A DNA stretch of 64,000 bases from Escherichia phage Pu-Krd-SF3. The stretch lies in the sequence record PQ249397; one strand, given 5' to 3'. Position 1 is the stretch's first letter, and every line of letters begins with the position of its first letter. A program made the translations under genes and the position numbers. The notes below the pieces were generated by a model. That model did no database searches and was not told where the DNA came from. It saw nothing but the letters and a program-made list of their open reading frames with translations. Positions 37,881 through 40,274 of this stretch are shown piece by piece.

Positions 37881-39565
37881 AGAATTTTAAACTAAACCGA
37901 GTTAGGTATCAAAATATAATGTCAGTAGGTGGAAATCCTATTGACATTCAACTAGATAAGGTTCAAAAAACTCTTATTACTGGACGAAATGGCGGTGGTA
38001 AGTCTACTATGTTAGAAGCCATCACATTTGGGCTTTTTGGCAAGCCATTCCGTGATGTAAAGAAAGGCCAATTAATAAACAGCACAAATAAGAAAGAACT
38101 TTTAGTTGAACTGTGGATGGAATATGATGAGAAAAAGTACTATATCAAAAGAGGACAAAAACCAAACGTTTTCGAAATCACCGTTAACGGTACACGTCTT
38201 AATGAATCTGCCAGCAGTAAAGATTTCCAAGCAGAATTTGAACAGCTTATCGGAATGTCATATGCCAGTTTCAAGCAGATTGTTGTCCTTGGTACAGCAG
38301 GGTATACCCCTTTCATGGGTTTGTCGACCCCTGCGCGAAGAAAGCTTGTGGAAGACCTGCTTGAGGTAGGAACATTAGCTGAAATGGATAAGCTTAATAA
38401 AGCACTAATACGTGAATTAAATTCACAAAACCAAGTGCTTGATGTTAAAAAAGATAGTATTATCCAACAAATTAAAATATATAATGATAACGTTGAACGA
38501 CAGAAAAAATTAACTGGTGATAACCTTACTCGTCTGCAGAATATGTATGATGATTTGGCGAAAGAAGCTAGAACGTTAAAATCGGAAATAGAAGAAGCTA
38601 ATGAAAGATTAGTTAATATTGTTTTAGATGAAGACCCGACTGATGCATTTAATAAAATCGGTCAAGAAGCATTTTTAATTAAATCAAAAATTGACTCGTA
38701 TAATAAAGTCATTAATATGTATCACGAAGGTGGATTATGTCCAACCTGTTTGTCACAATTAAGTTCCGGTGATAAAGTTGTTTCTAAAATTAAAGATAAA
38801 GTTTCTGAATGTACGCATTCGTTTGAACAGCTTTCAACACATCGTGATAATTTAAAAGTTCTTGTTGATGAATACCGAGATAATATTAAAACCCAGCAGA
38901 CGTTGGCGAATGATATTCGCAATAAAAAGCAATCTCTAATCACGACGGTAGATAAAGCTAAAAAAGTTAAAGCAGCTATAGAAAAAGCATCATCCGAGTT
39001 TATTGACCATGCTGATGAAATAGCACTGCTTCAAGAAGAACTTGATAAAATTGTTAAGACAAAAACTAATTTAGTAATGGAAAAATACCACAGAGGAATT
39101 TTGACTGATATGCTCAAAGATTCTGGTATTAAAGGTGCTATTATTAAAAAGTACATTCCATTATTTAATAAGCAGATTAACCATTATCTTAAAATAATGG
39201 AAGCGGATTATGTGTTTACATTAGATGAAGAATTTAATGAGACCATTAAATCCCGTGGTCGTGAAGATTTTAGTTATGCTTCATTTAGTCAAGGTGAAAA
39301 AGCACGAATTGATATTGCTCTTTTATTTACTTGGCGTGATATTGCTGAAAAAGTTTCAGGTGTTAAAATAAGCTGTTTATTTCTTGATGAAGTATATGAC
39401 GGTGCATTTGATGCTGAAGGTATTAAAAATGTAGCTAAAATTTTAGATGGTTTGAAGGATACCAACTTCTTCATAATTTCGCATAAAGACCATGACCCAC
39501 AAGAATATGGTCAGCATATTCAAATGGAAAAAGTTGGTAGATTTAGTTTAGCTAAGATTAGCTAG
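37877..39565 (+). CDS. 46: recombination ATPase gp46 (Rad50/SbcC-like)
   Basis: Walker A GRNGGGKST, long coiled-coil with central CPTC zinc hook, C-terminal signature/Walker B (LFLDEVYDG); 562 aa. Confidence 0.93.
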   Translation: MKNFKLNRVRYQNIMSVGGNPIDIQLDKVQKTLITGRNGGGKSTMLEAITFGLFGKPFRDVKKGQLINSTNKKELLVELWMEYDEKKYYIKRGQKPNVFEITVNGTRLNESASSKDFQAEFEQLIGMSYASFKQIVVLGTAGYTPFMGLSTPARRKLVEDLLEVGTLAEMDKLNKALIRELNSQNQVLDVKKDSIIQQIKIYNDNVERQKKLTGDNLTRLQNMYDDLAKEARTLKSEIEEANERLVNIVLDEDPTDAFNKIGQEAFLIKSKIDSYNKVINMYHEGGLCPTCLSQLSSGDKVVSKIKDKVSECTHSFEQLSTHRDNLKVLVDEYRDNIKTQQTLANDIRNKKQSLITTVDKAKKVKAAIEKASSEFIDHADEIALLQEELDKIVKTKTNLVMEKYHRGILTDMLKDSGIKGAIIKKYIPLFNKQINHYLKIMEADYVFTLDEEFNETIKSRGREDFSYASFSQGEKARIDIALLFTWRDIAEKVSGVKISCLFLDEVYDGAFDAEGIKNVAKILDGLKDTNFFIISHKDHDPQEYGQHIQMEKVGRFSLAKIS

Positions 39566-40274
39566 GTTTATATTTACAGTTATCATTATGCCATCTTGAT
39601 AAATTTCCGAAAGTTGTAACTTTACCACAGTGGACGCAAGTACCAGTTTTTTCAGTTTTCTTGCGTCCATTTGGATTTTTCTTGCAGAAATTTCTATGCG
39701 CTGCGATAACGCATTTCTTGCCTATCATTCCGCAGAATTCGCAGGATGTTTCTTCAAGAACGATTGCTTTAAATCCATTTGAGATATTATTTCTGTGTTC
39801 TTTAGACATCGGTGGTCTAACTTTAGGATTGGGGTGATTTGGGCAGTTATCAAAATGCCATCGATTCATATTTCCGCTTAATCCAGATTTACCGCAATGT
39901 GGACAAGTTAATCTTGCTTTATTAGCTACTGCATCAGACATTTTCTTTCGTGTTTCCTGGGAGAACTTTTTATTCTTTTCTATTTCCCAGAGTTTACGAC
40001 GAATCCAACCGAAAGTTTTATTGTTGCGTTTAGCGTATTTCGTGGAAACTGTCATCATGTTAGCAGCATAGACTAATTTTGGCTCAGAAGGATAAATTTT
40101 TACCAAAAGTTGATGAGCTACATAGTGCTCTTCTGGTGTTAAATCTACTAAGTTTGAAGCATCATCGCTACCGTTTAAACAGCGTGGTATAATGTGATGA
40201 GATTCAGTATAGCAATCAAGTTTTCGAGATTTAGCATTAGAGATTAACTTTTCATAAATTAGTTTATAATTCAT
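39558..40274 (-). CDS. free-standing HNH homing endonuclease (Mob-like) with C-terminal Cys-rich zinc fingers, opposite orientation to its neighbours
   Basis: HNH core TESHHIIPRCLNGSDDASNLVDLTPEEHYVAHQLL; repeated CPHCGK…CVHCGK…W(H/N)(F/N)DNC motifs; aagga SD on the minus strand; not at this position in T4 as I recall it. Confidence 0.8.
   Translation of the reverse strand: MNYKLIYEKLISNAKSRKLDCYTESHHIIPRCLNGSDDASNLVDLTPEEHYVAHQLLVKIYPSEPKLVYAANMMTVSTKYAKRNNKTFGWIRRKLWEIEKNKKFSQETRKKMSDAVANKARLTCPHCGKSGLSGNMNRWHFDNCPNHPNPKVRPPMSKEHRNNISNGFKAIVLEETSCEFCGMIGKKCVIAAHRNFCKKNPNGRKKTEKTGTCVHCGKVTTFGNLSRWHNDNCKYKPS

Follow-up and report, generated by a model that had tools for sequence, protein, structure and literature searches.

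An antisense Mob-type HNH endonuclease gene between genes 46 and 45.2 of a T4-like Escherichia phage and its probable spread by intronless homing

The DNA analysed in this work is a stretch of 64,000 nucleotides from Escherichia phage Pu-Krd-SF3 (record PQ249397), hereafter referred to as the window, and belongs to a T4-like phage of the genus Tequatrovirus. Between genes 46 and 45.2 of this phage lies an open reading frame of 238 codons, complete from ATG to stop, which runs against its neighbours, and the question raised by the locus is whether this is a homing endonuclease gene that has invaded the junction of the two genes and is still functional. A preceding sequence-only reading had proposed an inverted, free-standing and mobile HNH endonuclease gene in an otherwise unidirectional region. 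In agreement with this proposal, the minus strand of the window holds just three of the 70 ORFs of at least 110 amino acids, the other two are situated inside plus-strand genes, and the ORF between genes 46 and 45.2 is the sole genuine minus-strand gene. It is antisense to and convergent with gene 46, the end of which is overlapped tail-to-tail by its last 8 nt. The coordinates of the gene and of the features associated with it are given in Table 1.

Table 1. Coordinates of the endonuclease gene, its neighbours and related features in the window
Feature	Position	Strand	Remark
PHROG-655 HNH paralog, pseudogene	17171..17951	+	nonsense 17397, +1 frameshift 17702 vs CM8
Gene 46 (Rad50-like gp46)	37877-39565	+	left neighbour of the endonuclease gene
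Gene 46 3' end, endonuclease-linked allele (Walker B, D-loop, H-loop and C-terminal tail of gp46)	39345..39557	+	72-81% identical to gene-free alleles
238-aa Mob-type HNH homing endonuclease CDS	39558..40274	-	equals the PQ759884 CDS; ortholog of RB32ORF054w
Putative zinc finger 3, CVHCGKVTTFGNLSRWHNDNC, aa 213-233	39576..39638	-	same motif in T4 nrdB.1 and defective T4 I-TevIII
Putative zinc finger 2, CEFCGMIGKKCVIAAHRNFC, aa 178-197	39684..39743	-	CxxC motif, AlphaFold2 model
Putative zinc finger 1, CPHCGKSGLSGNMNRWHFDNC, aa 124-144	39843..39905	-	CxxC motif, AlphaFold2 model
HNH catalytic core, aa 24-54 (E-x-HH ... N41 ... H50 ... H54)	40113..40205	-	modelled beta-beta-alpha unit
Shine-Dalgarno-like AAGGA	40281..40285	-	7-11 nt before ATG, read from sequence
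Late-promoter motif TATAAATA	40308..40315	-	41 nt upstream of ATG
Cassette right junction: replacement RBS (GGAGG 40317-40321) and GTG start of 45.2	40316..40328	+	identity resumes at 40329
Gene 45.2	40326-40517	+	right neighbour of the endonuclease gene

The ORF is not a product of chance, because the same ORF recurs in 58 database records at 96-100% nucleotide identity, each time adjoining gene 46, and all 58 copies align over their full length without gaps. Nor is it new. The corresponding region of Escherichia phage Pu-Krd-SF4 (PQ759884) is 100% identical to that of the window, and its identical CDS carries the GenBank label “homing endonuclease”; the gene is annotated also in phages RB32, RB51 and dozens of others. 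RB32ORF054w and RB51ORF057 are copies of this gene at this very site, with 96.4-96.7% identity in nucleotides and 98-99% in protein, and are labelled in GenBank as [quoted passage not shown]. The RB51-type gene differs in its last two residues and overlaps gene 46 by 4 nt rather than by 8 nt. A literature search for the gene name RB32ORF054w found no paper.

The affiliation of the protein with HNH endonucleases was borne out by profile comparisons. The protein matches PHROG 655 “homing endonuclease” with E = 2e-68 and the HNH region of NCBIfam IscB with E = 4.5e-5; the Pfam HNH profile (PF01844) yielded 16.8 bits (E = 0.0074), which is under the gathering score of 21.4. A weak match to NUMOD3 was detected at aa 101-115, and PF07460 was found on many of the homologs. 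The residues characteristic of the HNH superfamily, i.e. the catalytic His of the first strand, the structural Asn and the distal metal-binding His, are present, and H26, H27, N41, H50 and H54 do not vary among seven orthologs or among 69 homologs. In the C-terminal part, each of three CxxC motifs is completed by a downstream H-x3-4-C, giving three CCHC fingers instead of the four zinc knuckles that had been counted in the sequence-only reading. The ligands of finger 3 are invariant in the 69 homologs, and its motif, CxxC...RWHxDxC, recurs in nrdB.1 of T4 and in the defective I-TevIII of that phage. Both the family and this type of finger are widespread: 2276 proteins were collected at E <= 1e-10, and a scan of IMG/VR with the endonuclease alignment revealed the RWHxDNC finger in at least 492 relatives, with distant paralogs of 27-57% identity among the matches listed. 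An AlphaFold2 model based on 69 sequences (mean pLDDT 94.3) contains a single HNH unit of beta-beta-alpha fold as well as three fingers of that fold, and a helix precedes every finger; whole-chain fold searches returned no significant match. The predicted layout, an N-terminal HNH domain followed by C-terminal zinc fingers, is that of the T4 Mob class (PHROG 655), for which such an arrangement has been described (PMC10448857). An intron-encoded enzyme of the I-TevIII type was ruled out, as the ORF lies on the opposite strand between two complete genes, both of which are intact.

Mobility of the gene is suggested above all by its distribution. Flanks at least 90% identical to those of the window are present in 503 records, approximately 445 of which, T4 included, have an empty site (the counts of 58 and 503 both include RefSeq/GenBank duplicates). 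Carriers make up ∼11% of the close relatives, or about one in nine, and since the gene is missing from the remaining ∼89%, it must be dispensable. Comparison of the 46-45.2 interval with relatives lacking the insert had been put forward as a check, and empty-site alleles, the absence of which would have spoken against the proposal, proved to be abundant. As had been stated in the sequence-only reading, the gene is absent from this position in T4, where just a 55-bp spacer separates genes 46 and 45.2. The same empty spacer was read in phages IME340, PP01 and KMB22 and in five IMG/VR contigs (L013-L017). A scan of IMG/VR with the C-terminus of gp46 retrieved 36 loci, one of which (L029) carries the gene, and the others served as gene-free controls. 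The T4 spacer presumably holds a MotA-box middle promoter (TGCTTTA, 11 nt, TATAAT), which in the window has been replaced by the new GGAGG and GTG start of gene 45.2. This promoter resembles the reverse complement of the first codons of the endonuclease gene, a resemblance that was judged coincidental, given that the MNYK N-terminus is conserved throughout the Mob family.

The presence of the gene is accompanied by divergence of the adjacent end of gene 46. In comparison with T4, IME340 and PP01, the identity amounts to 97-100% up to positions ∼39345-39370, drops to 72-81% from there to the endonuclease gene and returns to ∼100% at 40329, the second codon of 45.2; the remainder of gene 46 is thus 97-100% identical to the gene-free alleles. 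A database search with 211 bp of the diverged tract gave a bimodal result, with 59 records at 95% identity or more, none at 90-95% and all others at 81% or less, and 58 of these 59 records contain the endonuclease gene. The exception, phage KMB22, is a natural recombinant that combines the linked tract with an empty site: its carrier-type tract extends to the H-loop codons, beyond which gene 46 has an end of the T4 type and the 55-bp spacer is without the insert. Meanwhile, the outer flanks do not cluster according to whether the gene is present. In its 5' part, gene 46 of the window is closest to that of KMB22 and of contig L013, both endonuclease-free, and the flank of the carrier RB51 is closest to that of the non-carrier PP01. 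Hence, the cassette sits in different genetic backgrounds. One must bear in mind, however, that the gene-free alleles are themselves dimorphic in the tract (T4 type vs IME340 type, 80% identical), and therefore the variation of the tract has causes beyond this gene. Tract alleles are also common to different genera, whether or not the gene is present.

Orthologs sharing 42-65% identity with the endonuclease were found at the same site in Dhakavirus 04086, Mosigvirus 348Ecol098PP, Slopekvirus phT4A and Lemur, and Klebsiella phage Roth19, as well as in one IMG/VR contig and three metagenome contigs, and all of them are convergent with gene 46. Three independent pairs of genomes with and without the gene could be assembled, from Tequatrovirus, from Mosigvirus and from the Klebsiella-phage lineage of Roth19, and they share one pattern: 97-100% identity up to the Walker B codons, 57-75% from there to the endonuclease gene and ∼100% from the start of 45.2. 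In the Mosigvirus and Roth19 lineages the left boundary falls within ∼40 nt of the Walker B codons, the right one at the 45.2 start. The left boundary at Walker B may mark the site of the break, or equally the nearest conserved block at which recombination was resolved. The Walker B peptide TLILDEVFD was considered as a universal sensitive target and ruled out, as the endonuclease-free loci L026 and L027 share CLFLDEVYD with the carrier Roth19. No single substitution separates all gene-bearing from all gene-free alleles, so that the candidate target is bounded no more closely than by the two ends of the block.

The gene seems to be equipped for expression of its own. The motif TATAAATA corresponds to the T4 late-promoter consensus. 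Of five ortholog lineages, four (Tequatrovirus, Mosigvirus, Dhakavirus and Roth19) have it at positions between -41 and -53, and the leader that follows it is conserved across these four. The minus strand of the window contains a single copy, the one ahead of the endonuclease gene. The motif by itself is not enriched in the window (8 occurrences found vs ∼11 expected), and the weight therefore rests on its position and its conservation in the orthologs. The 5' leader folds no better than shuffled sequence (z = -1.28) and gave no indication of a regulatory hairpin; between positions 39000 and 41000, consensus sigma-70 promoters are no more frequent than in shuffles and no terminator was predicted. 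Early and middle transcripts that come from gene 46 probably run antisense through the endonuclease gene into 45.2. In this gene, the window and RB32 are separated by 21 synonymous and 3 non-synonymous differences. With dN/dS at 0.03-0.11 among members of the genus and at 0.15-0.21 when genera are compared, the endonuclease is under purifying selection.

Homing is supported by the polymorphism at a fixed site, the co-segregating tract, the outer flanks that do not cluster with the gene and the site-specific orthologs in other genera. In our opinion the ORF is thus likely to encode a free-standing homing endonuclease of the T4 Mob class that is functional and has spread by intronless homing, and the distribution of the 58 carriers and ∼445 empty sites together with the linked tract speaks for the mobility claimed in the sequence-only reading. 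The course of events can be modelled by analogy on T4 MobE and the Seg enzymes. During a mixed infection with a gene-free phage, the enzyme would be made late from its own TATAAATA promoter, and its three CCHC zinc fingers should read an extended DNA site. We infer that it would nick, or cut through both strands of, the endonuclease-free genome either within the final ∼200 bp of gene 46 or within the 55-bp spacer that precedes 45.2, so that the target should fall in the empty-site equivalent of positions 39345-40328. Recombination-dependent repair would then furnish the broken genome with a copy of the endonuclease gene and of the adjoining 3' end of gene 46, and inheritance would be biased accordingly. 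The carrier genome would presumably be protected because its own stretch has diverged and its spacer has been replaced.

The closest characterised relative is T4 MobE, encoded between nrdA and nrdB (Wilson and Edgell 2009, PMC2790892), which belongs to the same PHROG 655 and shares 43% identity with the HNH half of the endonuclease (aa 1-115, 120 aligned positions). Both genes are free-standing amid conserved genes of DNA metabolism, occur sporadically in T-even phages and adjoin a neighbour with linked polymorphisms. In T2, MobE introduces a nick ∼120 nt into the neighbouring gene nrdB, and flanking DNA is inherited along with the MobE gene; the latter lacks its own promoter and is transcribed together with nrdA (PMC2790892). 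The gene described here, in contrast, occupies the 46/45.2 site, is oriented opposite to its neighbours and is preceded by its own late-promoter motif. It also encodes three in-frame fingers, whereas the T4-reference MobE ends at 141 aa and has a single finger in another frame (nrdB.1). C-terminal CxxC...RWHxDNC fingers of the same type are present in I-TevIII (nrdB intron of RB3; defective in T4), the T4 remnant of which aligns to aa 174-234 of the endonuclease with 38% identity and exhibits no similarity to its N-terminal half; I-TevIII, however, is intron-encoded. The same combination of N-terminal HNH and C-terminal zinc fingers is found in gp28, gp80 and gp179 of phage ICP1 and in the wider phage “HNH-3 plus zinc finger” group (Barth et al. 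2023, PMC10448857), and tblastn matches to ICP1 showed 48-50% over aa 1-60 of the endonuclease. These proteins belong to another phage family and to other sites, and their HNH core alone can be aligned, but their genes likewise sit at the boundaries of recombination tracts beside essential genes (PMC10448857).

Sequence patterns of this kind might also arise without cleavage, if the gene together with the diverged end of gene 46 were a passive mosaic module that is spread by ordinary homologous recombination and leaves the empty site uncut. The boundaries of the cassette are compatible with such a scenario, since the left one coincides with the signature motif and Walker B, where the nucleotide sequence of the region is most conserved, and the right one with the conserved first codons of 45.2; the deep dimorphism of the same tract among gene-free alleles and the sharing of tract alleles across genera irrespective of the gene would suit it, too. 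Passive spread nevertheless seems improbable in view of the strong purifying selection on the nuclease ORF with its catalytic residues intact, the faithfulness of the ortholog clade to one site over several genera and the nearly complete linkage of tract and gene (58/59), let alone the fact that MobE is an active homing enzyme (PMC2790892).

Somewhat less probable still is a domesticated nuclease that has lost homing and serves the phage, for instance by keeping out competitors (other phages or subviral parasites) or by cleaving the DNA of the host. Derivatives of homing endonucleases have indeed been domesticated in phage ICP1 (PMC10448857), and purifying selection and a conserved promoter would suit any useful function. 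The absence of the gene from ∼89% of close relatives, however, shows that the phage can dispense with it, the linked diverged tract and the fixed insertion site are predicted by homing, and the exclusion of markers itself follows from homing-type cleavage, so that this explanation partly overlaps with the main one. An inactive relic, kept merely through its linkage to gene 46, is very improbable. Decayed HNH genes do exist, as illustrated by the 17171 gene of the window and, in T4, by the split mobE/nrdB.1 and the defective I-TevIII, yet 58 of 58 copies at the 46/45.2 site are full length and free of gaps, dN/dS is as low as 0.03-0.11, and the catalytic and zinc-binding residues are invariant.

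Under the preferred explanation, homing by a functional enzyme, the gene fits the established picture of the Mob class and adds little new biology. Its modest value is that of a clean natural system, with a site-faithful clade over several genera and a sharply bounded tract in an essential gene; the separation of the tract from the gene in KMB22 and the unusual antisense placement with an own late-promoter motif are further assets. Together, these properties make the mapping of the target and a test of target-site immunity straightforward. A bolder extension, that the clade specifically targets the Walker B/D-loop/H-loop segment of gp46 and that the deep cross-genus haplotypes of this segment are the footprint of invasion, immunity and loss, can be offered only tentatively and seems rather doubtful. 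If it were true, KMB22 would represent a natural resistant empty-site allele, and it would be a selfish element that drives the ATPase core of an essential recombination nuclease to diversify and to be exchanged horizontally.

Two more HNH genes of PHROG 655 are present in the window. Over its first 75 aa, the product of the gene at 17171 shares 53% identity with the endonuclease (E = 4e-20), which confirms the relatedness of the N-termini noted earlier; its C-terminal region is different. The decay ascribed to this gene was traced by comparison with an intact 259-aa gene of phage CM8, to which it is 99.6% identical at the nucleotide level. The gene was killed recently through two lesions, a nonsense change (TGG>TAG at 17397) and a frameshift due to an extra A at 17702. 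The third gene (55870-56721, 283 aa) is intact. The idea that one genome harbours mobile endonucleases at different stages of their life cycle is therefore supported, with two intact members of PHROG 655 and one freshly inactivated, though their kinship is limited to the HNH domain and their C-terminal DNA-binding parts differ.

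Phage PP01 harbours an endonuclease gene of family PHROG-655, different from the one between genes 46 and 45.2 and coding for 284 aa, between genes 46.1 and 46, where it lies on the same strand as its neighbours. Gene 46 itself has a second polymorphic patch in its first ~85 nt, which separates T4, RB51 and PP01 from the window, RB32 and IME340. Taken together, the PP01 gene and the 5' patch suggest that both ends of gene 46 may be targeted by mobile endonucleases.

At the 3' end, phage KMB22 (OR539217) is a natural recombinant: its gene-46 tract is the one that accompanies the endonuclease gene between genes 46 and 45.2, yet its spacer is of the T4 type and empty. 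The crossover falls within the conserved H-loop codons. In a relative of Klebsiella phage Roth19 without the endonuclease gene (IMG/VR contig 2974754850), gene 46 appears to be frameshifted in the Walker B region; the frameshift may be genuine or stem from a sequencing error. A short patch of lower identity in rpbA (36/50 with RB32, 43/50 with both T4 and RB51), surrounded by sequence that is 98-100% identical, is another small mosaic segment.

Coordinates of the variable segments and endonuclease-related features
Feature	Sequence	Position	Strand
HNH pseudogene, T-run	window	17245	
Gene 46, 5' patch	window	37877-37961	
rpbA patch	window	40761-40810	
283-aa HNH ORF	window	55870-56721	+
TATAAATA motif	window	56717-56724	
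284-aa endonuclease gene	PP01 (locus L010)	173-1027	
Apparent gene-46 frameshift	Roth19 relative (locus L047)	~2884	
mobE region	T4 reference (locus L131)	1717-2417	
Recombinant region	KMB22 (locus L132)	2501-2780	

The window contains a third PHROG-655 member, an apparently intact ORF for a homing-endonuclease-like HNH protein of 283 aa, which matches the endonuclease next to gene 46 weakly (E = 3e-4) and whose 3' end is overlapped by a TATAAATA motif. In the T4 reference, MobE stops at 141 aa, and the downstream ORF nrdB.1 encodes, in another frame, a CPHCGK...RWHYDKC finger homologous to the fingers of the endonuclease next to gene 46. Together, mobE and nrdB.1 of T4 look like a full-length Mob gene split by a frameshift, despite which activity of MobE has been reported (PMC2790892).

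A T-run in the HNH pseudogene of the window is one T longer than in the GenBank record of Escherichia phage Pu-Krd-SF4 (PQ759884), whose pseudogene consequently carries one further frameshift; phage CM8 has the length of the window. Either the sequences come from different versions or isolates, or one of them has a homopolymer error.
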